A stretch of 64,000 nucleotides of DNA from Paraspadella gotoi. Its lineage: Eukaryota; Animalia; Chaetognatha. Positions 2,170 to 15,448 of this stretch are shown here, one piece after another (positions within the stretch are counted from its first letter, which is position 1; the number at the start of each line of letters is the position of its first letter). Location: assembly GCA_051294375.1 (NCBI GenBank), contig CM119265.1, positions 28,582,443 through 28,646,442 on the forward strand, in the 5' to 3' direction. The notes beneath the pieces were generated by a model. It ran no database searches. It saw only the letters and a list, made by a program, of their open reading frames with translations, and was not told the origin of the DNA. A program made the translations under genes and the position numbers.

Positions 2170-2236
2170 TTTATTTCATTTATTTTATTTCATTCGATGA
2201 GAACATGGTTCGTCTATTTAGATCTGCTTACAGCAG

Positions 2237-3273
2237 TGTAATAAAAAAGTAGGTGACGACCTTTGTTATTAGTTTATTTAGTAATTGATATTGCAGGGAT
2301 AGCTTAGGCAAAGCAAGGATTGGCTTTGAGCAAAAGCAAAGGTTGGTCTTAAGAAAAGCTTAAGAAGCAAAAAATTGGTTATAAGTGAAGCAGAGATTGC
2401 CTTTGAGCAAAGAGGGAAATGGCTAAAAACAAAGGGCAGTTAGGAGAAGGCTAAAGCCAAAAGGGGGGCTTTTACGGCCTGCTAAGTCCCAAACCAATTC
2501 CAGAGGAGAAATCACGTGACCAAAATCTGCCTATATAAGGAGGAGTGCCACAGACTGTGGTCAGGAGTCAATTGAGACCCTCTGAAGTGTAAGGGGAAAT
2601 TCTGTCCGGCTGGAAAAGTTACTGGAAAAACGCTTAAGTCCAGGAGAGACTGAAAACGCCTAAGTCCAGGAGAGACTGAAAACGCCTAAGTCCAGGAGAG
2701 ACTGAAAACGCCTAAGTCAGGAGAGACTGAAAACGCCTAAGTCCAGGAAGGACTGGTTGGAAATAATAACTCTAAGGTTAAGTCTGATAAGACTTGGTTA
2801 AGGTTAAGTCTGGTAAGACTTGGTTAAGGTTAAGTCTGGTAAGACTTGGTTAAGGTTAATGGTAGATTAATATAAGGGTCTCAAGTGACTACAGACCACA
2901 GCTTCATAATTCCTAGTGGACTCTCCTCAACTCTCAAGTGGATTTCATTAATACTTTGGCTTACATTTAATTTGAACATGTGTATTTAATTTTGTATATG
3001 TACATTGATTTTACTGTGCTTTAAAAATAATGTATTGAGTCAGTAGTAAAGATATTATTTAAATTTGTACTAAAGATTATTTCTTTATTTTTCTTTTAGG
3101 TTAAATTTTTAATAAAAGCGCCCCAGGTTACAAATCCAGTGGACTCAGGATTTAAATAATAAAGTTTTTAACGCCAGGAACTCCAGTGCCCAAGAACTCA
3201 AGGACTCCAGTTTTTCGATATTTTATAATAAAGTGGGTGGTGGTAAAAAACACCACCCAAGATTTTTATTACA
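2237..3273 (+). repeat. 5' LTR
   Basis: TGTAATAAAAA...TTTTTATTACA 11-bp terminal inverted repeat; TATATAAGG ~2532; 26-bp tandem arrays at ~2625-2750 and ~2773-2860; AATAAA ~3111; GGGTGGTG/CACCACCC hairpin 3235-3258; near-identical to 14038-15043. Confidence 0.95.
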
Positions 3274-3275
3274 TC

Positions 3276-3321
3276 TGGCGCCAACATGTGGGGCTCGAAC
3301 CCACGACCCCGGGATTAAGAG
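3276..3321 (+). promoter_or_regulatory. Extended primer-binding site complementary to tRNA-Lys(CUU)
   Basis: TGGCGCCAACATGTGGGGCTCGAACCCACGACCCCGGGATTAAGAG, starting 2 nt after the LTR, is close to the reverse complement of animal tRNA-Lys(CUU) from the CCA end to the anticodon loop. Confidence 0.9.
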
Positions 3322-3589
3322 AGATTAAAAATAAGGGGAGCAACTAATAACGGTAAGGTATTCGTAACAGGAGGGAAGCGAAGGTACGGCGCAACTCTCA
3401 GCCAACGATCTTCTGACGGGTGAAATCAAGATTAGTCCTGAGAACCTACCAGGAAGGTGCCTGGGAGGAGACGGAGGTACAGATACTAAGGGAAAAGCGA
3501 CAATCGCCGAGGAAGTAGACTCGTTAATAATATGTACGCAAGAGGCGATTCCTGGGAGTTGCGACAGGGGTGCTGAAGAAATCCAAGGA

Positions 3590-4093
3590 ATGGACGAAAT
3601 GCCACAAGAAACGTCGCAGAAATGCGAAACCTTGGAGCAGGAATTGGTCTTTCTAACCGAGCTGCCGCCACAGAAGCAGAGACGGCTGAACACACTGGTA
3701 CGAACGTATAAGGTCTCGGCTTCCACGGGATCCACGCCGACCAAACCAGGGTCTGTTGCAATAAAGTATGGGGCGTCGGAGTCGGAACCTGAAGAATTAG
3801 ACACGGCTCCAAAAAGGTTTGCTTGTCACGAATGTGCTGATGAATTTACGAATAAAAGTGCATTGAACGGGCACCGAAGGTGTCACACTTACGACTGTCC
3901 TGAGTGTAATGAAAGAGTGAAAGGGAGATTTTTATTTGAGCTACACAACGAAGTGAAACATAAAAATTTATATGAGTGCTTGGTATGTGAGGAGACGTTC
4001 ACGGAAAAGGGGAGAATAATTGAACATCTCCTACTCCACGAGGTTTTTAAGGAGGAAGCTAGAAAAATAACGTCAAATATAAGGATACTGTAA
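3590..4093 (+). CDS. Element ORF1: three C2H2 zinc fingers (frame open from 3368)
   Basis: CHECADEFTNKSALNGHRRCH, CPECNERVKGRFLFELHNEVKH, CLVCEETFTEKGRIIEHLLLH. Confidence 0.85.
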   Translation: MDEMPQETSQKCETLEQELVFLTELPPQKQRRLNTLVRTYKVSASTGSTPTKPGSVAIKYGASESEPEELDTAPKRFACHECADEFTNKSALNGHRRCHTYDCPECNERVKGRFLFELHNEVKHKNLYECLVCEETFTEKGRIIEHLLLHEVFKEEARKITSNIRIL

Positions 4094-4662
4094 TGTAGTG
4101 AAAATTGGGGTAGGGAAAAGCCTATCACGCCTCGCTTCGTAAAAGAGATTTTTGGTCGGATTTAAATACACTCAAAATAGAGTTTTTATTTTGTCAATTT
4201 TAAATTATGTCCGAGTATAGAGGGGACGAGTGGTTTGATAAATTGTAAAAGGAGAAAACCCTGTACAAAAAGGGTGGCGTAATTTTCATTTGTTTTTCGT
4301 TCTCATGATAACGTTTATTTAAATTGCCGTTTATCTTAACGCCATAATCATGGCACTTATTTTCACCACACTCGTGGAATCATCTTTTACTAATGCCACA
4401 CTCGTGGTAATATTAATTTTAATTTTCTCATTACGCCATTGATCTGTAACGTTGATTTTAAAAGTGGTTTTGTTTTGATCGTCTCCCGCTTGGGAAAAAT
4501 ATTGTTTATTTACTCGGCTACGGCGCCTGATTTTCGTCCGATAGTCAACATTTTTTTTTCTACTTTTGGATATCTCGCATTTTTTATAGCGTTTCCACTA
4601 ATTGCCTTTTTATAAATTGTCGTGAACCCTCTCGTTGACAGATTAATTACTAAAACGGAGCA

Positions 4663-5241
4663 ATGAACCGCTCAAAAAGCCAAGTTTTCCGTGTAAACCC
4701 TAATACACGGGAACAAGCAACTCAAGCAGACGTAGAGTTGCTAAAATTTAATAACGTTGCATGTAAAACCGGAATAAACAATAATGGATCGACGGAAGAT
4801 GACGGACGGGGCGAGACGGATGTTTCGCCAGGCTCAATGAGTTACTCGGAAACAAGACCTCAGGAGGTGACGAGTGAAGAAGATGATGCATACAGTGAAG
4901 AAAGTGGAACGCGATCGGATGGGAGTAGGACTAGTAAAAGTAAGAAAAGGGAGTTTAAGAAACTAGGAAGAGACTGTTGGGACGAACATTGGGAAAAACG
5001 CACTGTAATGAACAAACGTGATTGTTTTAAATGTAGTATTTGTAATAAAACACTGTCTGCTAGAATCCACTTGGATATCCACAACGAGACTGTGCACTCT
5101 GTAGTTTATCGGTGTTTAATTTGTAAAAAATATATAAAGAAAAAGGATAAAATTGTAGTACATGTGTTAATGCATAAGGAAATGGAAATTTTTGCAAAAG
5201 ACGTTTTTTGTTGCATAGAAACTAAAGAGAGGAATAAGTAG
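4663..5241 (+). CDS. Element ORF2: acidic disordered N-terminus plus two C2H2 zinc fingers
   Basis: CSICNKTLSARIHLDIHNETVH and CLICKKYIKKKDKIVVHVLMH; AG acceptor at 4640-4641 upstream of the ATG. Confidence 0.85.
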   Translation: MNRSKSQVFRVNPNTREQATQADVELLKFNNVACKTGINNNGSTEDDGRGETDVSPGSMSYSETRPQEVTSEEDDAYSEESGTRSDGSRTSKSKKREFKKLGRDCWDEHWEKRTVMNKRDCFKCSICNKTLSARIHLDIHNETVHSVVYRCLICKKYIKKKDKIVVHVLMHKEMEIFAKDVFCCIETKERNK

Positions 5242-5370
5242 AATTTTACGTAAGGGTCATGAAAGTTCTGTAAAATAATATCAGCTGCTAAAATTCTCAA
5301 AAATCTTAAAATAATTTAATGTTTTTTCTTTATCACACAGATAAAACTCGAATTAATTAAGTTTACTAAA

Positions 5371-6297
5371 ATGGAATCTAATGAACTGAAAAATTGTTTT
5401 AGCGAATTAAGGGAGTGGGAAATGAAAAATAAGTTATCTGTAAACCAATTAACTGAAGGCCAGCGCAGGCTTGAAATGCAGATAGAGTATGAAAGAAAGG
5501 ATAAGGAAAAGGCTATCCAAAGGTTACGCGATGAGGAAATTAAAAATAGGGACTTACGAAAATTAGTCGCTGAACTTGGTCAAGGGATTCAATTTAAGAG
5601 TAGGGAAAAAGAGGGATTCATGAACGTAAGATTGAAAAAAGATATTGGGTTGAGAGAGACACAATGGGTAGAGACGGAAACGTTGACATATATCTTAAAA
5701 ACGAAAGGGGTTTTGAATGAGGTAGTAAGGGAGATGCAAGAATTTGAACGGAAACCATGGGAAACTAACAAGGAAGCGTGTATACCTACTAAAGTAATAA
5801 GATCAGAATCCCTAATGAAAGTATTCTTTGAGCAAGTTGATTTGACCATATTTACTAAAGAAAGGGAAAGGTTGGATAACGAGTGGAAAAAATTATGCTT
5901 AAAAAGTAAGGAAGTTGAAATATTACGGGAAAAAGTGTATGAGAACCGGGAAGTCATACAAAATTTCTATGAGAAGGAAATAATTGGTATTGTAAAGGAG
6001 AAGATGGACCAGGTTAAGAAAATATATAGCAACGTATGGAATAACCAAAATACTGAAGAAGGCAAGAACTTGATTGATAATAAAAGAATTAACTTTGAAG
6101 AGGACGAGATTCAAGTTTACGTCTCCCCAGAAGAAATCGTGGAAATGGAAGGGAATAATGTAAGTGAAAATGTACATTATGAAAAACAAAATGAGGTAGT
6201 CAATGAAAATATCAAGAATAGTATGGTAGAGAATAGGGGAACAAAAAGAGATGGAGACGGGAATCCAAAAGGAGTGATAAGTAATATAGACAAAGGT
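5371..6297 (+). CDS. Element ORF3, N-terminal part: coiled-coil protein, possibly Gag-like
   Basis: E/K/R-rich helical ORF running into the N gap at ...GVISNIDKG; the same sequence resumes at ~10745. Confidence 0.7.
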
Positions 6298-6322
6298 NNN
6301 NNNNNNNNNNNNNNNNNNNNNN

Positions 6323-9300
6323 TTCCGTTCTTCATGATAACGTTTATTAAAAAGCCGTTTAATGCTTAACGCCATTAATCATGGCACTTATTTTCACCGA
6401 CACTCGTTGTAATTCATCCTTTTACTAATGCCACACTCGTGGTAATATTTAATTTTAATTTTCTCATTTTACGCCATTGATTCTGTAAACGTTTGATTTT
6501 AAAATTGGCTTTTGGTTTTTGATCAAGAATATAACATCTACGGCTTGGGAAATAAATATATTGTTTTTATCTTACCTCTCGGCTATCGGCGCCTGATTTT
6601 TCGTTCGATAGTCAACATTTTTTTCTACTTTTGGACCTATCTCGCATATTTTTCCCTATAGCTCTCCTTTCCACTTTAATTTCTGCCTTATTTTATAAAA
6701 TATTGCTCTCTGTGAATCTCCCTACTCGTTGACAGACAATTTATACTCTATAATAAACGGCCAGCAATTGAACCCGCTGCAAAAATGCACATTCTAAGTG
6801 ATATATATACGTGTAAACCCTAATTACACGTGCGATAAACAAGCAACTCAAGCCCTCAGACGTTAAGTTGCTAATATAATAACGTTGTGCAATATGGGTG
6901 TTAAAACCGAAGAATTAAACAATAATGGAATTCGTGGAAGGATGACGACGGGAGCGAGGACGGATGTTTTCGCCAGGCTTTTCACATGATGTTACTCTGG
7001 AACAAAGACCTCAGGAGGGTTGAACGATGTGAGAACAAATGATGTCCACTTGCATTCCTACAGTGAGATAGTTGAGAAACGCGAATTTCGGATGGGACGT
7101 GTCAGGACTAGATAAAAGTAAGATAAGGTGTAGATTATTTTAAGAACACTTATATAGGAAGTAGACTGTTTGGGTCACGAAATGGGGAAAAAACGTCCTA
7201 CATGTTTACCATGAACAATTAAACGTTGTTATAACCTGTCCACGTATTTAGTAATAAAATCATCTGTCTGAAACTCTAAGAATTCCACTTGGCATGAGTC
7301 TCACACCCACGAGTATGTGCAACAAAATCCCTCGTCCACCGTCTTCATCGTGGAATCTAATTTGTATAAAAACATATATTATAAAAAGAAAAATGTCGTA
7401 ATAATATTATAGTACATGTGTTAATAGCCAATTAAGGAAATGGATAATTTTTGCAAAGAACGATTTTTGTCTGCATAGATACTAAGGAGAGGACCTATAA
7501 GATAAGAATTTCCTACTCCGTAAGGGGTTTCATGAATATGTTCTGTAAAATAATATCAGTCTTGCTAAAATTCTTTCAATAAATCTTAAATAATAATTTA
7601 GTTTTCTCATTTATACACAAGATTTAAAAACTTCGACTATTTAATTAAGTTTTACTAAAAATGGAATCTATTATGGCAACCTGCACCAAAAATTATTGTA
7701 TTTAAGCGAATTAATGCGGCATGTTGGAGATGAATTATATTATGAGTTATATTGTTAATACCCCAACTTAACTGAAAGGCTAGTGCTGCAGGCTTGAAAA
7801 ATATCTTGTGCAAAGATAAAGAGTATGAATAAGAAAGGTATTAGCGAATGGCTATATCCAAATGGTACGCTGTATGACTGTTGAAATAAATAAGGACTTT
7901 TACGTAATAAAATAGTCGCTGAACTTGGTCAAGGGCATTCTCAATTTATAGTGGAGTAGGGTGAAAATAAGATGGGATTTCATGATACTTGTATTTGTGA
8001 ATAAATATATTTGGGTTTTGAGAAGACACTAATTGGTTAGATGACGGTAAACTGTTGACATATATCTTATAAACGTAAAGGAGGAATGTGGACAGACTCT
8101 ACGATACATTAGGGTGTTAAACGTTTATTAACGATGCAATACAATGACATAAAAAGGTGAAATAAAAAGGTAATGCAATTACACAGTGGAAATGAGACAA
8201 AATCGATGTTTACTTAGTGAATGAAAGGTTTAGAAAGGCATTGAACGTTGTGTCTATTCTTCGTGGGCTAACGCGTGGCCATCGACCGGAAGGAAACCCC
8301 GTTGAAAGCCAGCGGGACGACGAGACCAATGACCTGAGGTTCTAAGAGGTCATGGTGGTCGTTGAGGGAAAAGATGAGAGAGATAGTCGAGGTAGCTCGG
8401 CCTTCATCCCCCCCATCAAGTTCGTTGTCTCCGGAAAGAGGGCGCGGAACTGATAACTACAGCTTCTTGCCGTGGTCCATGAATTGCATAAAGGGGAATT
8501 GGTTGCTTTTGCGCACAAAAGAGGTCGCTGTTTGTATGTCACATAAAGTTTGTCAAGTCCTAAATCCAATGAGGCCGTAGGAAATATAACGGAATATATA
8601 ATTTAGAGCGTGTGATAGCTCATCTGCGGTTTTTGGCGTCGTGTCTGTGGCGCTCTGCCACGGCGTTTTTTGCCGTCTTCCACGCATTGCTGTTTTTAAG
8701 TAGCTCTAGTTGTAGCAGAGGCTTGTTCATATTCTGCAGCCTTTTTTTCTGTGGACGTGTGGCCGACAATTCCGAGGTTATTTCCTCAGGGAACTTCGTA
8801 GTTGGCGTCAAAGAAAAGGCTGTCATCAATTATCGCCAGAGTCACTGGGCAACAGAGGTGGATGAAAGGCGACGATATTAATGATGGGAGACCTTTGTTT
8901 GTTTTTGTTGATTTTGTCGTAAGATAAAGGTGAAAGAAATAGAAAAAGAGTGATAAGTAATAAAAGTGGGTAAAGGAACGGAACATTTTTGAGAAAATAT
9001 ATTAAAATAGTAGGAAATTAACAAGTAGGTAGAATAAAAAGTAAGAAAAAAAATAAAAAATGGAGCAAATTTATATATTTGAATTGTTTAGAAAAAAGCG
9101 TTAAGGTTTTTTGTTTCATTGTAGGAATTATGTTTGCAGCATTGAAGGAGCAATTCAAGGCATTGAAGGAGTTTGCTTCTTTAGAGCATTCAGATAAAAA
9201 CGTCAGATTCGGTTTACTGCCAGAATCACGAGCAGAGGCTGATGCCACGAGCTTTTGGATACGCAAATTGACGAAGGTGTCGGCGATAGTTTTGGTAGAG

Positions 9301-10780
9301 ATAAGTTTTTTCTCGGCGTCTTCTTGCTTTGCTCGTCAACGGCCGTCGTTAGTAAACGTCGGGAAAAAGAAAACGATGAGGGCGACTCAACCAGTGTTGG
9401 AGTTTTTTGGCAGAGAGATTTGTCAGAGAGGGTTTTGGTAATGTTAGGTGGAGGATTTATATTATTCTCCAGAGTAGATGGTGACCCGCCGACACCGGAG
9501 ATAAGGGACTTAAATTGGAGGTGTGAAAAAGGAGTCTTTTTTGGAGGGGACATGGAAACGAGACAGGCGAATCGCCCTTGTGAATGCAAGGCTGATTGGG
9601 TGAATCCTTGCTTTCACAAAGAATTGTATTTTTTACTAAAAGCGGAAGATTCAAAACAAGTTCCAATTCATCCATTTTTTCTTGTTCACGTTGGGAGGTA
9701 GGATACTTAGTTGGGAGGTTGGTTGGCAATATTGTAAACATTTTCAGAGGTTTTTTTTTTTTTTATGGGCGGGGAAGGTTTTTAGGAGGCTTTTTTTTTT
9801 TATATAGTATTTTTCACAGAAGGCTTTTTGGGCGTGTTCTCCGTCGGGCTCACCAATGTGGGAGACACGACAATAGGGTGTAAACAGTTTATTACGAGGC
9901 AATTACAATGACATAAAAAGGTGAATAAATAATGAATTACACAGTGGAGAGACAAAACGATGTTACAGGATAAAGGTGTTAATTAGTTGTGTCTCTCGTG
10001 CTTCGCGCCGACCGAGAAGACCCGTTGAAGCCCACGAACAATGACCTGAGGTCTGAGGTCATGTGGTCGTTGAGCGGAAAAGAGAGGAGAGTCGATAGTA
10101 GCTCAGGTCCTCAGGGTTTGAATATAGTATCAGGTAGTAAGGAGATGCAATGAATTGAACATAATCGTAATGGGAAAGAATAAAGCAATTAAGAGAGCGG
10201 ATCGTATTAATTACTAAACTAATAAAAAGTAATAGAATCAGATATGCCTCCCTAATGAAATGTATTCTTTGAGCAAGTTGATTTGACCATATTTTACTTA
10301 AAGAAGGGAAAGGTGGTTGGTATAACGAGTGGAAAAATATATGCTTAAAAAGTAAGGAGAAGTGAAATATTACGAAAAGTGTATGAGAACCGGGAAGTCA
10401 TACAAAATTTCTATGAGAAGGAAATAATTGGGTATTTGATAGGAGAAGATGGACCAGGTTAAGAAAAATAATTAGCAACGTATGGAATAACCAAAATTAC
10501 TGAAGAATGGCAAGAACTTGATTGATAATAAAAGAATTAACTTTGAAGGACGAGATTCAAAGTTTACGTCTCCCAGAAGAAATCGTGGAAATGGAAGGGA
10601 ATAATGTAAGTGAAAATGTACATTATGGAAAAAACAAAATGAGGTAGTCAATGAAAAATATCAAGAATAGTATGGTTAGAGAATAGGGGAACAAAAAAAG
10701 AGATTGGAGACGCGGGAAATCCATAAAGGCAGTCCGAATAAAGTGGGAATCCAAAAGGAGTGATAAGTAATATAGACAAA
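6323..10780 (+). other. Error-rich duplicate of ~4330-6297 (unpolished read or alternate allele) carrying a nested insertion
   Basis: Colinear with 4330-6297 but full of single-base indels; begins right after an N gap. Confidence 0.85.
8087..10113 (-). mobile_element. Small nested LTR element (TRIM/non-autonomous-like) with tRNA-Trp-like PBS
   Basis: Direct repeats 8087-8406 and 9857-10113 with TG..CA ends; on the minus strand TGGTGAGCCCGACGGAG follows the 5' LTR and GGGGGGGA precedes the 3' LTR; it interrupts the ORF3 copy at AAGGGG. Confidence 0.75.
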
Positions 10781-10927
10781 GGTCTCGATCCCGGATGTAA
10801 GATATTATGCTGTGGAATTAGGAGGTGTGGGAAATGCTTCCACAGTCACGGGGACCAAGTTGATTGCCCATGCCTGCATACAAGGCAATTTATTGATTTC
10901 GTGGAAGGTGGAGAGCTATTTGATTAA
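10745..10927 (+). CDS. Element ORF3, C-terminus: Cys/His-rich, zinc-knuckle-like
   Basis: GNPKGVISNIDKGLDPGCKILCCGIRRCGKCFHSHGDQVDCPCLHTRQFIDFVEGGELFD*, continuing the ORF cut at 6297. Confidence 0.7.
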   Translation, partial: GNPKGVISNIDKGLDPGCKILCCGIRRCGKCFHSHGDQVDCPCLHTRQFIDFVEGGELFD

Positions 10928-11083
10928 CTATAAATAATAGGACTCGGTGAACAAGTTGTGCGATAACGCTGTGTTAATAATTGTGTTGACAAGTGTTAAT
11001 TGGAATTGAACAGTGTTTTATTCTTGAAGTGTATTGATAATTCTTGCCTTTCATGTTATGTTCTTTCTTCTTTCAGTAACGAA

Positions 11084-12675
11084 ATGGAACTGAAATTAAG
11101 TGACAGTGTGGTAAACTTATTTGAGACAAACATCCCAAAAAAGAATGACCTCTTGCACGCACAAAGCAAGACAAGGGAATTCAACTCCTAAAGCAAGCCA
11201 TTCTGGATGGCAATAAACCGGACTTCAAAGACAAAGTCATTAAAGGATTTAAATCCGTCTTCCGGTCACTGGAGCTCGATGACGGAATATTGGTGAGAAA
11301 GACTCCTGGCGGGAATACAGCAATCGTGGTCCCAGAAAGTAAGGTAAATGAAATCCTTTATCATACTCATGGTAGTCCGTTGTCAGCACATTATGGGATA
11401 AGTAAATCATATTATAAGTTGGTGAAACATTTTTATTTTCCAAAGATGGTTGTTAAATTATCTGACTTTATAAATACCTGCCCGTTGTGTGTACGTAGAA
11501 AAAGTCCCAAAAATAAGCCAATGGCGGAGATTCAGCCTATTAGCGTAGACAGCTACGATATTGGGGGATGTATATCTTATGATTTTAAAGGCCCTTTGCC
11601 AGTTAGTGACAAATCTATATTGTATCAATGTAAAAATCGATTCGTACTAGTAATTATTGATCACGCATCAAGGTTTGTATTGGCTCATCCGACGCCCACC
11701 ATGGAAGCGTCGGTTGTGGCGGAAGTCATTATTTCGTCTTGGATACCGAGATTTGGAGTGCCAAGAGCCATTATCTCAGATCGGGCTAAAACGTTCACGG
11801 GTAAAATTCTTAGAACTATATATGAAAGCCTCCAAATAGATATTTGCTTAACAGCGTCGTACAATCCGGCCGCTAATGGATTAATAGAACAAGTGAATAG
11901 AAATATTTCTAATATTTTAACGGTCATGTTGGATGGCTTTATGGCCGACTGGCCAAAGCAATTAAATTTATTATTTAGCGCGTATAACTCGAGCCCCAAT
12001 ATATCAACCGGGGTATCGCCAAACTACATAGTATATGGGAGAAACTTAATTGAACCTATTGATCTTATTTTAACCAGGAGGGAAACTATTGGCTGGAAGG
12101 AGAGAAAAATTTTGGACGAATTGGAGGAACGGTTACGAGCAAGAAGAAAAGTAATGGAGATATTGAACCTAAGGTACGAGGAGGGGCAGGAGAAGAGGAG
12201 GGAGAAATCTAAAGTTAAAGCCAATGTCCCAACTTATGTAGTTGGGGAATTAGTGGGCTTTGAGCCACCGTTGCAACCGGGGAAACTTTTAAAGTCCTAT
12301 GAGATTAATCATACAGTGATAAAAGTACTATCTCCAACAACGTATGTAATAAAAAACAATGAAACGGGTTTTGAAAGGGTTGTTAATGCAAGAAAACTAA
12401 AAAAGGCGGTAACAAGAAAACTTAAACCAGTAGAATGTCAAAATGGGGGAATAATAATTGAGGAACAATCTGATTTCTCAGATGCGTCGTCCGGATCCGA
12501 GGGAGAAGGCACTAACACGTGGGTGCAACAAACACGAACAAACGGAGAAAGCGTAATTGATGGACGAGCCGAACCTGTAAAAATAAGTACGCAAAAAGAA
12601 GAGGATATGAATATGTGGGATAAACGTTTGAGAGACAGGAAACTTTTGAATAAACCGAAAAGATTTGAATTATAA
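11084..12675 (+). CDS. Gypsy-type DDE integrase as a separate ORF (one probable 1-bp indel near 11168)
   Basis: HHCC (HTHGSPLSAHYG...CPLC), catalytic YDFKGP / ISDRAKTF / NGLIEQVNR, degenerate GPY/F region, basic C-tail RDRKLLNKPKRFE; acceptor TTCTTTCTTCTTTCAG ending 11076, ATG 11084. Confidence 0.92.
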
Positions 12676-12810
12676 TGACGAAAATGTTTTACTGAATAAA
12701 TAAAGTTAGATTATGGTCTTAAGTTTTGTCGGGGGGGGGGGAATGTAGAACATAAAATGTCCTACATTTGTTCTTTATTCTAGGTACGATAAATACTGAA
12801 ATAAATAAAT

Positions 12811-13914
12811 ATGTACGCGTTAACCAATGTCGGAATATACGTCAAACTCCTAAGTTATGGTAGAGACGATGAGGCGTTTGAATTAGCATTGAAAAAAGTA
12901 ATCAAAGGATCATTGCATATGGCAATTGAGTATGGTAGGGAGAGGGTTACGAGGAAGTTACTTGAGGAAGGAATTGATCCAAATGAAGTGAGGAACCATG
13001 ACGGACTTACGCCATTGCATATTGCAGTAATGAAGAAAAACGTGAATATCGTGGAACAGCTAATGGTGCGAGGAGCAGACGTGATGAAATGTGATTATTC
13101 AGGGAATAATTGCCAGGCTAAACTACTAAGAAAACGGTATGATTCAAAGTCTAAAATAGTAATGGAGCTCATTAAAAATAAGATGTCTGAACAGGACTTT
13201 AAGATAAAGAATACTCATGGGGAGACATTATTACACATAGTGGCTTCTAACCCAGAAATAGTAGATATACGGTTGTATGAGATGCTGTTAACAATGGGAG
13301 TGCCAACAGATGTACAGAATGAATACTCGGGACGCACATTCCTTATGGACTTATGTAATAATAATCTGGATGATGAATTTATAATAGAGGCTATAGAATT
13401 CGCTAGAAACAAAGGGATAGATATCAATCAAGAGGACAAGAACCAGAATACTTTACTACAGTATGCTATTACTAAGGGAAATAGGAAAGTAACAAAGACA
13501 TTGCTTGACATCCCGGATACCAAAGTAATAACTAAAAATGTGATGGATGTAACTCCGATGTGGAATGCAGCATTTAAGGGCGACTTAAGGATGGTTAAGG
13601 ACATTTACAGAGCAGGTGGAAATCTGGAAGATACTGCATATGTTAATGCAGCAACTACCAAGCCCATACCAACATGGCAGGCAGCTCGCAGGTCTCGTCA
13701 CGAGTTTGTAGCAAGAAAGATTATTGAATTCATGACAGGAGTAGAGGAAGGACAGAACATTACCAGGGAAGTTAAGAGTTTAAAACATCTAACTAAACTA
13801 ATTATTCGGAATGAGTTGGTTAGGAGTAACCAGGGAAGAGTATTAATTGACCAGTACGAAGGGCTTAAACTACCCAAGACCCTTGAACAGTACTTAAAGG
13901 AAATACAGTACTGA
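12811..13914 (+). CDS. Ankyrin-repeat plus C-terminal SOCS-box protein (ASB-like) inside the LTR element
   Basis: About 7 ankyrin repeats (GLTPLHIAVMKKNVNIVEQLMVRGADV, GETLLHIVA, NTLLQYAITKGN, TPMWNAAFKGD); BC-box VKSLKHLTKLIIR and cullin box LKLPKTLEQYL; intronless and intact. Confidence 0.9.
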   Translation: MYALTNVGIYVKLLSYGRDDEAFELALKKVIKGSLHMAIEYGRERVTRKLLEEGIDPNEVRNHDGLTPLHIAVMKKNVNIVEQLMVRGADVMKCDYSGNNCQAKLLRKRYDSKSKIVMELIKNKMSEQDFKIKNTHGETLLHIVASNPEIVDIRLYEMLLTMGVPTDVQNEYSGRTFLMDLCNNNLDDEFIIEAIEFARNKGIDINQEDKNQNTLLQYAITKGNRKVTKTLLDIPDTKVITKNVMDVTPMWNAAFKGDLRMVKDIYRAGGNLEDTAYVNAATTKPIPTWQAARRSRHEFVARKIIEFMTGVEEGQNITREVKSLKHLTKLIIRNELVRSNQGRVLIDQYEGLKLPKTLEQYLKEIQY

Positions 13915-14037
13915 AACTTCATTGTCTATTTGAGATTGCCTGAAGCACGGAGGAAACTACCTGGTTAAGGGAATTTTATGGTGCTTGAAAGCATGAAACT
14001 GCATGAGGACATGCAGAAGTTTTGTCCGGGACAGGGA

Positions 14038-15043
14038 TGTAAATAAAAAAGTAGGTGACGACCTTTTTTATTAGTTTATTTAGTAATTGATATTGCAGGG
14101 ATAGGCTTTAGGCAAAGCAAGGATTGGCTTTGAGCAAAAGCAAAGTTTGTCTTAAGAAAAGCTTAAGAAGCAAAAAATTGTTATAAGTGAAGCAGAGATT
14201 GCCTTTGAGCAAAGAGGAAATGGCTAAAAACAACAGGGCAGTTAGGAGAAGGCTAAAGCAAAGGGGGGCTTTTACGGGCCTGCTAAGTCCCAAACCAATT
14301 CCAGAGGGAGAAATCACGTGACCAAAATCTGCCTATATAAGGAGGAGTGCCACAGACTGTGGGTCAGGAGTCAATTGAGACCCTCTGAAGTGTAAGGGGA
14401 AATTCTGTCCGGCTGAAAAGTTACTGGAAAAACGCTTAAGTCAGAGAAACTGAAAACCTAAGTCCAGGAGAGACTGAAAACGCCTAAGTCCAGGAGAGAC
14501 TGAAAACGCCTAAGTCCAGGAGAGACTGAAAACGCCTAAGTCCAGAAGGACTGGTTGGAAATAATAACTCTAAGGTTAAGTCTGATAAGACTTGGTTAAG
14601 GTTAAGTCTGGTAAGACTTGGTTAAGGTTAATGGTAGATTAATATAAGGGTCTCAAGTGACTACAGACCACAGCTTCATACCTAGTGGACTCTCCTTCAA
14701 CTCTCAAGTGGATTTCATTAATACTTTGCTTACATTTTAATTTGAACATGTGTATTTAATTTTGTAATGTACATTGATTTTACTGTGCTTTAAAAAATAT
14801 GTATTGAGTCAGTAGTAAAGATATTATTAAAATTTGTACTAAAATTATTTTCTTTATTTTTCTTCCAGGTTAAATTTTTAATAAAAGCGCCCCAGGTTAC
14901 AAACTCCATGGACTTCAGGATTTAAATAATAAAGTTTTTAACGCCAGGAACTCCAGTGCCCAAGAACTCAAGGACTCCAGTTTTTCGTATTTTATAACTA
15001 AAAGTGAGTGGTGGTAAAAAACACCACCCAAGATTTTATTACA
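14038..15043 (+). repeat. 3' LTR
   Basis: Direct repeat of 2237-3273, preceded by GGGACAGGGA, followed by TSD AGCAG; one fewer AAGGTTAAGTCTGGTAAGACTTGGTT unit. Confidence 0.95.
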
Positions 15044-15448
15044 AGCAGATTCCGGCTTGACTATTCATTTTGTCGGTTCTGTCAGAACATCGAATTATGA
15101 AAAATTTGGCAAAAAAACCGATGTCCGTCTGTCTGTCTGTCTGACTGTCTGTTTGTCTGTTCTTCCATCCTACCTTAGCTTTAATCGCTGATTACTCTTG
15201 AGTGGATGAGGCTTTTAACTTAAAAATTTGTGTGAAGGTAAATAAGTATGTGATTGAGTTGTAAATCAAGCAAAAACAGCTCCCGCTCCCAACTGTACCA
15301 GTGTTATGATGTAAATATTTTCAATTTGTTATAAACAAATATAAACGTCAGGGAGTTTTCTAACTATTGATAAGATCAAATATCAATAATAGTCAGTCAG
15401 TTAAGAGTTATAACAACTCTTTTCATTTTATTCCATTTTTAGAGAGAT

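Follow-up and report, generated by a model that had tools for sequence, protein, structure and literature searches.

A young LTR retroelement in the 64 000-nt stretch of DNA analysed here (the window) carries, between its integrase gene and its 3′ LTR, a gene for an ankyrin-repeat protein that ends in a SOCS box. The element-borne ASB-like gene is real. It varies a strategy that viruses are known to use and sits in an unusually built LTR element. Our leading interpretation, which is tentative and which we hold at a little under an even chance, is that this is an accessory gene whose product would act as a Vif-like substrate adaptor, probably against a host protein that restrains the element.

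Reading frame and position of the gene

The frame runs for 367 codons without a stop, frameshift or intron (Table 1) and is backed by short-read contigs, in agreement with the first-pass annotation, which had described an intact intronless ORF of this length between integrase and the 3′ LTR. No frame as long as this arose in 2000 base shuffles of 11001–15043. The ORF starts 136 nt past the integrase stop (12675), and 103 nt separate its end from the motif with which the 3′ polypurine tract begins. The gene had also been said to occupy the env position. That placement stands, but an env origin does not, because the product has no membrane segment and gag-pol was not seen upstream. No hydrophobic segment was found in the product (maximum 19-residue hydropathy 0.9), and with its ankyrin fold the third ORF is not a membrane fusion glycoprotein as in errantivirus-like env elements; an env remnant was ruled out by the same lack of a membrane segment.

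Table 1. Features of the element, in order along the window
Feature	Position	Strand	Remarks
Left target-site duplication, AGCAG	2232..2236	.	Identical 5 bases at right end
5′ LTR	2237..3273	+	TG...CA, terminal inverted repeat ~11 bp
5′ LTR signals	2237..3273	+	TATA-like box near 2532; AATAAA at 3111/3158/3227
Primer-binding site (PBS), unusually long	3276..3320	+	Directly after LTR
Splice-donor-like site after PBS, inferred major donor	3351..3358	+	Pattern scan, 1 of 10 matches in element
ORF ZF1, C2H2 zinc fingers	3590..4093	+	Frame open from 3368; zf-C2H2 E = 2.6e-5, 24.9 bits
ORF ZF2, C2H2 zinc fingers	4663..5241	+	ZF1 paralogue, 31% over 80 aa
ORF3, charged orphan protein	5371..6297	+	Cut by N gap; frame resumes 10784–10927, Cys/His-rich end
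Assembly overlap, not element sequence	6298..10783	.	N gap plus noisy copies of 4295–5708 and 5717–6272
Stand-alone Ty3/gypsy-type integrase	11084..12675	+	HHCC, D-D35-E intact, p58-type C-terminus
Internal polypurine-tract-like site and TG...CA hairpin	12721..12765	+	10-nt motif common to 3′ tract
Polypyrimidine tract and AG, acceptor-like	12762..12783	+	16/20 pyrimidines, 27 nt before ORF ATG
Ankyrin-SOCS box ORF	12811..13914	+	367 aa, ATG to TGA; Pfam, short-read contigs, ESM Atlas, AlphaFold2
Eight ankyrin repeats	12910..13740	+	Residues ~34–310
BC box, S323–I332	13777..13806	+	Thr328 at Cys/Ser/Ala position; consensus from PMC3355856
Cullin box, L352–L362	13864..13896	+	Fits Cul2-box pattern; Cul5 box except Lys for first Pro
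3′ polypurine tract	14017..14037	+	Purine tract directly before 3′ LTR
3′ LTR	14038..15043	+	TG...CA
Right target-site duplication, AGCAG	15044..15048	.	Same as left

Ankyrin stack and SOCS box

Pfam recognised ankyrin repeats in the product (Ank_2, E = 6e-24). An AlphaFold2 model built from a 22-row alignment (mean pLDDT 79) has eight helix pairs over residues 20–309, with pLDDT of 79–96 across the block from residue 31 to 310. The ankyrin assignment made at first pass was therefore correct, but the count is eight repeats rather than about seven. Three further helices are predicted in the tail (321–338, 342–348 and 356–366) at a pLDDT of 43–49, from an alignment in which the tail was out of register with the ASB rows. 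A model from the single sequence reached a pLDDT of 39, and the tail lay below 50 in both models.

Scanned over the whole protein, the SOCS box family PF07525 matched residues 321–363 at 21.3 bits (cut-off 23.5). On the last 87 and 54 residues alone, tails that were picked after the first SOCS match was known, it scored 24.7 and 26.3 bits and was the sole family matched; the profile check proposed in the first-pass annotation thus finds the box on the isolated tail, while in the whole protein the score stays below cut-off. Neighbours of the product in the ESM Atlas fall in clusters named ‘SOCS box domain-containing protein’ (score 0.98).

The two motifs read at first pass, SLKHLTKLII (residues 323–332) and LKLPKTLEQYL (352–362), are present as described, threonine included. 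BC boxes follow the consensus (S,T,P)Lxxx(C,S,A)xxx-hydrophobic (PMC3355856); three of its four defined positions fit, Leu324 and Ile332 being retained, and the sixth residue is Thr, at the Cys position that has been deemed critical (PMC6232478). We came across no BC box with Thr there in the papers cited. The Cul5 box contains LP-hydrophobic-P, with the fourth-position Pro the most important (PMC3355856; pattern also in PMC13342108). The product has LKLP here, which departs from the pattern, while the fourth Pro is kept and the remaining positions fit; for SOCS1, with its incomplete Cul5 box, PMC3355856 reports that Cul5 binding was not detected. The Cul2 box, published as lying 8–23 residues further on from the BC box (PMC3355856), is matched at L354-P355..L358..L362, 21 residues past I332. 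This match does not decide the cullin, because every Cul5 box fits the Cul2 pattern too. As in ASB proteins, the ankyrin repeats lie N-terminal to the SOCS box. Since the strict motif misses two defining residues, we file the product, on its sequence, as ASB-like and not as a proven ASB member.

Searches for a donor returned ankyrin proteins of no particular kind. BLASTP gave no alignment between the tail and a real insect ASB, and phmmer no match between the tail and the PDB. Fold searches (PDB, viral and VIA) gave generic ankyrins, named no donor and barely covered the tail. The model matched ASB7 (8Y1U chain A) with Z 22.3 and rmsd 4.1 over 262 residues, within residues 29–315 only, which is no better than its matches to generic ankyrin proteins. 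Homologues of the whole protein, sought among 5.8 billion proteins, came to five hits from 2089 candidates, all generic ankyrin only, and of the 150 listed of 4117 hits to residues 201–367 among 1.84 billion proteins, none had its best stretch over the SOCS box. Among the matches listed, the closest relative has a local identity of ~31% over 242 aa, and there is no close host ASB.

Thr328 outside (C,S,A), LKLP instead of LPxP and the whole-protein SOCS score below cut-off all weigh against an adaptor, while the ASB architecture, with its SOCS box at the extreme C-terminus, and the likeness of the tail's three predicted helices to the SOCS box of ASB7 (PMC11263391) speak for one, as do the retained Leu324, Ile332 and fourth-position Pro and the spacing of the two boxes. 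The absence of BLASTP and phmmer matches for the tail and its low pLDDT also count against an adaptor. The two misses would also suit a decoy, in which the ankyrin repeats block a host factor (in the manner of IκB, or against a host ASB) and a worn SOCS box binds weakly or not at all. Burro elements offer a precedent for ankyrin cargo with no SOCS box listed (PMC6431247). We consider the decoy rather unlikely, though the likeliest of the alternatives, since the 43-residue box is complete, terminal, correctly spaced and above the Pfam cut-off by itself.

Structure and age of the element

The ORF lies within an LTR element spanning 2237–15043 and flanked by a 5-bp target duplication. The TG...CA LTRs, PBS, polypurine tract (PPT) and target duplication are those of Ty3/gypsy elements; a Ginger-type DNA transposon was ruled out by the LTRs, PBS and PPT. 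The PBS resembles the complement of the 3′ half of a lysine tRNA, while Rfam and ARAGORN matched no tRNA or RNA family there. An exact match of the LTR-PBS in a bacterial MAG extended to no further similarity and was put down to chance.

Over 983 matched bases the two LTRs differ by at most seven substitutions and 34 gap events. At several of these differences short-read contigs agree with the 5′ LTR, which marks many of them as assembly errors and makes the insertion very young. The LTR contigs were ~6–17 times deeper than internal contigs, depth not being equal to copy number, and the excess could reflect solo LTRs or a partner that shares the LTR. Both LTRs contain tandem 26-nt units of two kinds (2609–2860 and 14433–14640, with one more unit in the 5′ LTR); as speculation, it is possible that these are binding sites for the element's zinc-finger proteins. 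The end of the LTR (3225–3273) forms a strong hairpin inside the terminal inverted repeat (−12.6 kcal/mol). One short-read contig, from run X4, equals the right flank (15044–15143) exactly from the first base past the LTR and adds 25 further letters, consistent with an empty site and hence a polymorphic insertion.

Part of the assembled interior is an assembly overlap. It repeats 4295–5708 at 72% and 5717–6272 at 85%, with an unrelated 2-kb stretch between the copies, and it closes on an exact 39-nt repeat (6259–6297 = 10745–10783), after which the ORF3 frame continues to a stop at 10927. From LTR to LTR the element measures 12.8 kb as assembled and 8321 bp minus the overlap. The gene order then becomes ZF1, ZF2, ORF3, integrase and ankyrin-SOCS, with a longest open frame of 508 aa. 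ZF1 scores just beneath the zf-C2H2 cut-off of 25.2 bits. ORF3 matches no Pfam family, has a best Atlas score of 0.87, which is low recognition, and is not recognisably Gag. The 2-kb stretch within the overlap (8085–10113, placed at ORF3 position 5708–5717) lies between two direct repeats of ~300 bp that are 71% alike; it may stem from a chimeric read or from another copy into which a small LTR-type element had inserted.

Reverse transcriptase and Gag

A six-frame search of 6297–11200 revealed no motif of RT, protease or RNase H, and the Pol ORFs of fetched gypsy loci matched the element in the integrase only. In accurate sequence the end of ORF3 and the start of integrase are 157 nt apart. 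The assembled copy, to which this statement applies, therefore appears to lack the gag and the PR-RT-RH fused upstream of integrase that make a Ty3/gypsy element autonomous, a point that the first-pass annotation had missed. Because RT was not seen in it, the element as assembled would need a partner to move and would be mobilised in trans; it could also have arisen from an autonomous element by simple deletion.

A stand-alone integrase

The integrase opens with an ATG of its own (11084), 7 nt past an acceptor-like site. Its first codons are off-frame relative to the body, with the break within 11149–11191, and this is an error or a mutation. The HHCC and DD35E motifs and the GPY/F-type tail are those of a gypsy-type integrase, and the closest named relatives are gypsy Pol proteins at 24–30% identity. 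All 17 relatives with 45–58% identity, from a search that admitted proteins of 279–889 residues only, are short and unnamed, and 14 of them have a Met 6–13 residues ahead of the common N-terminal motif. A search of longer proteins returned 13 RT-fused forms, all at 24–30% to the integrase, which is weak evidence in itself. A quick tree placed the 18 stand-alone rows on one branch with an SH-aLRT of 100 and a long stem. Judged from these alignments, the integrase is of a distinct stand-alone clade.

A scan of metagenome contigs for loci of this clade gave 17 distant gypsy loci (23–34%), none of which was matched by the ankyrin, zinc-finger or ORF3 queries, and no loci of the clade were found in viral or genome contigs. 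Three distant gypsy loci (L003, L004 and L005) have consecutive ORFs of 524 aa, 1338 aa (RT and integrase) and 858 aa and are three-ORF elements. A contig from run X9 (depth 2.1; RNA by guess only) omits 277 nt of the integrase core (11800–12077, GT..AG, + strand), possibly a non-productive splice.

A free-standing integrase in a copy that appears to lack RT and Gag suggests a division of labour between two elements. In its full form, which we hold to be doubtful, this would be a two-part LTR retroelement: an RT-less, Gag-less half with the integrase, two zinc-finger regulators and an adaptor that degrades a host silencing factor, and an LTR-sharing partner that gives Gag and RT, all 17 integrase relatives being alike in this. 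If true, the retrotransposon would be segmented and would carry a gene for counter-defence at the protein level.

Splicing signals

Acceptor-like sites with at least 15 pyrimidines in 20 occur at only three places in the accurate internal sequence: 30 nt upstream of the ATG of ORF3, 7 nt upstream of that of integrase and 27 nt upstream of that of the ankyrin gene. The threshold was chosen after inspection, without a shuffle control. Weaker sites (13–14/20) precede ZF2, and none precedes ZF1. Together with the donor-like site after the PBS, this pattern suggests that each protein is likely translated from a separate spliced RNA. The short-read contigs, among which those of X9 are RNA by guess, showed no spliced transcript of the ankyrin-SOCS ORF.

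Several separately initiated element proteins in need of balance would also suit self-regulation, in which the adaptor would act on one of the proteins made by the element or its partner (integrase, the zinc-finger proteins, ORF3 or Gag), whose destruction would time the cycle or limit copy number. The contig depths, which are not copy numbers, suggest few internal copies, in keeping with this. The viral analogues compared here all target host proteins, and we judge self-regulation to be quite unlikely.

Short-read support and sister families

The stretch 11100–15043 is present in nine short-read runs from three studies, with at least half of the sampled words found in eight of the nine. The comparison of contigs took in five of the nine runs (X1, X4, X6, X7 and X9), and the ORF region four (X4, X6, X7 and X9). 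The best-matching sample may be the window's own, while X6 and X7 are from another study; X9 contigs were not counted as expression. In X6 a single contig covers 12778–14030 with no differences and runs into the start of the LTR. In X4 one contig (12640–12857) reaches from the end of integrase across the start of the ORF with one gap in a G run, and a second (12883–14030) is free of differences. Contigs of X7 take in most of the ORF and differ at one base, and X9 covers 13777–13955 only. An identical or near-identical ORF is present in all three DNA runs (X4, X6 and X7). A chimeric assembly that inserted a host gene into the element was ruled out because contigs bridge both junctions, and the ankyrin-SOCS gene belongs to the element. 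Short X4 contigs over the ORF start (12828–12911) have depths of 380–428, against 189 elsewhere, and branch points, and may come from truncated or rearranged copies.

The contigs also contain two diverged sister families. Family a (X4, X6, X7 and X9) has gap-free pieces at codons 176–191 and 267–291, with a spacing of 227 nt in both family and window. It then matches the 19 nt that lead up to the purine tract, with a loose end that continues into a purine tract and the start of an LTR. From the last matched piece to the motif before the PPT it measures 302 nt, compared with 318 nt in the window, so that it has room for the same tail. Family b (X1, X4 and X6) is gap-free over codons 288–314, with 16 differences in 81 nt; four of the five that are listed of these 16 fall at third positions (P = 0.045). 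In the sister integrase, 22 of 29 differences fall at third positions among those listed (P = 3e-6). Neither family yielded a piece of at least 80% identity over the SOCS box, and similarity above 80% is confined to the ankyrin repeats. This confinement favours the decoy, and the space that family a leaves for the same tail counts against it.

These comparisons give good evidence, at the level of sequence, for an old, maintained gene in the slot before the PPT and modest evidence for purifying selection on the ORF. The several samples and the two sister families argue against a single neutral copy, the case that the first-pass annotation had named as contradicting its reading. Since both families keep gap-free homologous pieces, the ORF is probably no passenger, that is, a host ASB mRNA captured between duplicated polypurine tracts and carried without function. 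An intronless ORF between two PPT-like sites with a common 10-nt motif does have the look of a capture scar (three matches to the motif occurred in 2 of 100 shuffles), and the copy is so young that its intactness alone proves little. The internal site, which an integrase contig of a diverged sister family matches as well (joint 12389–12723), may be a scar left by gene capture or else a central PPT. We nevertheless think a passenger unlikely, because sister families that are ~20% or more diverged preserve the frame spacing, with the position before the PPT also unchanged in one of them, because no close host ASB was found in the searches of 5.8 billion and 1.84 billion proteins, and because the base composition of the ORF is like that of the element's integrase.

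A possible adaptor and its known counterparts

The favoured adaptor would work as follows. The ORF would be expressed from a spliced subgenomic RNA, using the donor after the PBS and the acceptor at 12783. The stack of eight ankyrin repeats would bind a host protein, probably a restraint on the element. Through its degenerate SOCS box the product is predicted to engage ElonginC/B and a cullin, Cul5 or else Cul2, and the bound protein would then be ubiquitinated and destroyed. Mobilised in trans, the element could repay its partner with integrase and adaptor. The splicing, the binding of ElonginC and the choice of cullin are inferred. Imperfect boxes can function in other parasites: the BC box alone suffices for Cul2 recruitment by poxvirus ANK/BC proteins (PMC6232478), and ASFV MGF505-1R recruits Cul5 through an imperfect box (PMC13342108).

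Cellular ASB proteins such as ASB7 (PDB 8Y1U; PMC11263391) have the same ankyrin stack and terminal SOCS box. The ORF differs from them in lying inside an LTR element, in the Thr at the BC-box Cys position, in LKLP and in having no orthologue that we found. Orthopoxvirus ANK/BC proteins (ECTV 010; PMC6232478) and ASFV MGF505-1R (PMC13342108) are likewise ankyrin ElonginBC-cullin adaptors of parasites with imperfect boxes. They are DNA-virus proteins with demonstrated binding, whereas the element's ORF is known from its sequence, and as described in those papers the ANK/BC proteins have no cullin box and the MGF505 box is N-terminal, whereas the ORF has a full C-terminal SOCS box. Lentiviral Vif (PMC3843819) is the retroviral parallel, a retroelement accessory gene past integrase with a BC box, and it lends us counter-defence as a working model. 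Vif has no ankyrin repeats, no homology is implied, and an APOBEC3-like target is not known for the ORF. By analogy with these systems, a counter-defence role is plausible. The first-pass reading as a counter-defence factor is supported in part, through the intact, element-borne ASB-like gene and its sister copies, while none of the results points to a silencing protein as the substrate.

The same viral proteins allow for a different target. Poxvirus and ASFV adaptors hit NF-κB/IRF3 and p300 (PMC13342108, PMC6232478), and the cargo of Burro elements is enriched in apoptosis and ubiquitin domains (PMC6431247), so an adaptor might instead act on another host process (apoptosis, NF-κB-type signalling, the cell cycle, or germ or stem cell fate) and favour carriers of the element. 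We find this unlikely, because an env-less intracellular element should face silencing more directly than immune signalling.

Among mobile elements, the giant gypsy elements Burro/GYPSM1 of planarians (PMC6431247) share the gypsy type, ankyrin repeats and ubiquitin-related cargo. They exceed 30 kb and encode a polyprotein of ~4900 aa that includes Gag, RT and Env, whereas the present element is ~8.3 kb with short separate ORFs. Membership of Burro was ruled out by its size (12.8 kb assembled, 8.3 kb without the overlap) and its longest frame. In bdelloid LTR retrotransposons, non-env third ORFs are captured genes in the env position and are typically spliced, as is predicted here, but the cargo consists of GDSL esterases, DEDDy exonucleases and coiled-coil or membrane proteins, and the elements have gag-pol (PMC5408684, which mentions neither ankyrin, SOCS nor ubiquitin). 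Wheat RLG_Quinta and RLG_Sabrina (PMC11302176, PMC9744471) are RT-less LTR elements that keep a useful gene and have a partner sharing LTR ends and PBS. These keep Gag without RT and integrase, whereas the present element appears to be the reverse, keeping integrase without Gag and RT, and so reverses the Gag-keeping split of semi-autonomous elements. Transposon counter-defences described so far include plant VANC and, in the telomeric elements of Drosophila (TART), piRNA-based gene capture, fragments of an F-box gene among the captured sequences (PMC13534243, PMC7785250). The full texts searched showed neither an LTR retrotransposon with a SOCS-box gene nor an integrase-only partner, though TE annotations in supplements could hold such a family; PMC12748216 lists host ASB genes only. 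The closest analogues are viral.

Hijacking of cullin ligases is a viral hallmark (Vif, poxvirus ANK/BC, ASFV MGF505), and a maintained ankyrin-SOCS gene in an env-less animal LTR element would extend it to intracellular retrotransposons. The substrate of the adaptor would point to a host factor that limits such elements.

Other features of the window

The window, which probably comes from an animal genome, is rich in AT and in microsatellites, and outside the element it has NACHT and Kelch ORFs that lack introns. At 41952–44614 an ORF with a NACHT domain (Pfam E = 1e-12) precedes one of 320 aa that matches no family; together they may represent a single NLR-like gene, broken or split. The Kelch-repeat ORF (46040–47041) is of KLHDC2-like type (Pfam E = 2e-40), and a 448-aa ORF on the minus strand (56385–57731) appears hydrophobic by eye and matches no Pfam family. 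Between 19100 and 21700 lie nested, near-perfect inverted repeats with arms of up to 301 nt that are 94–100% complementary, foldback or MITE-like in character.
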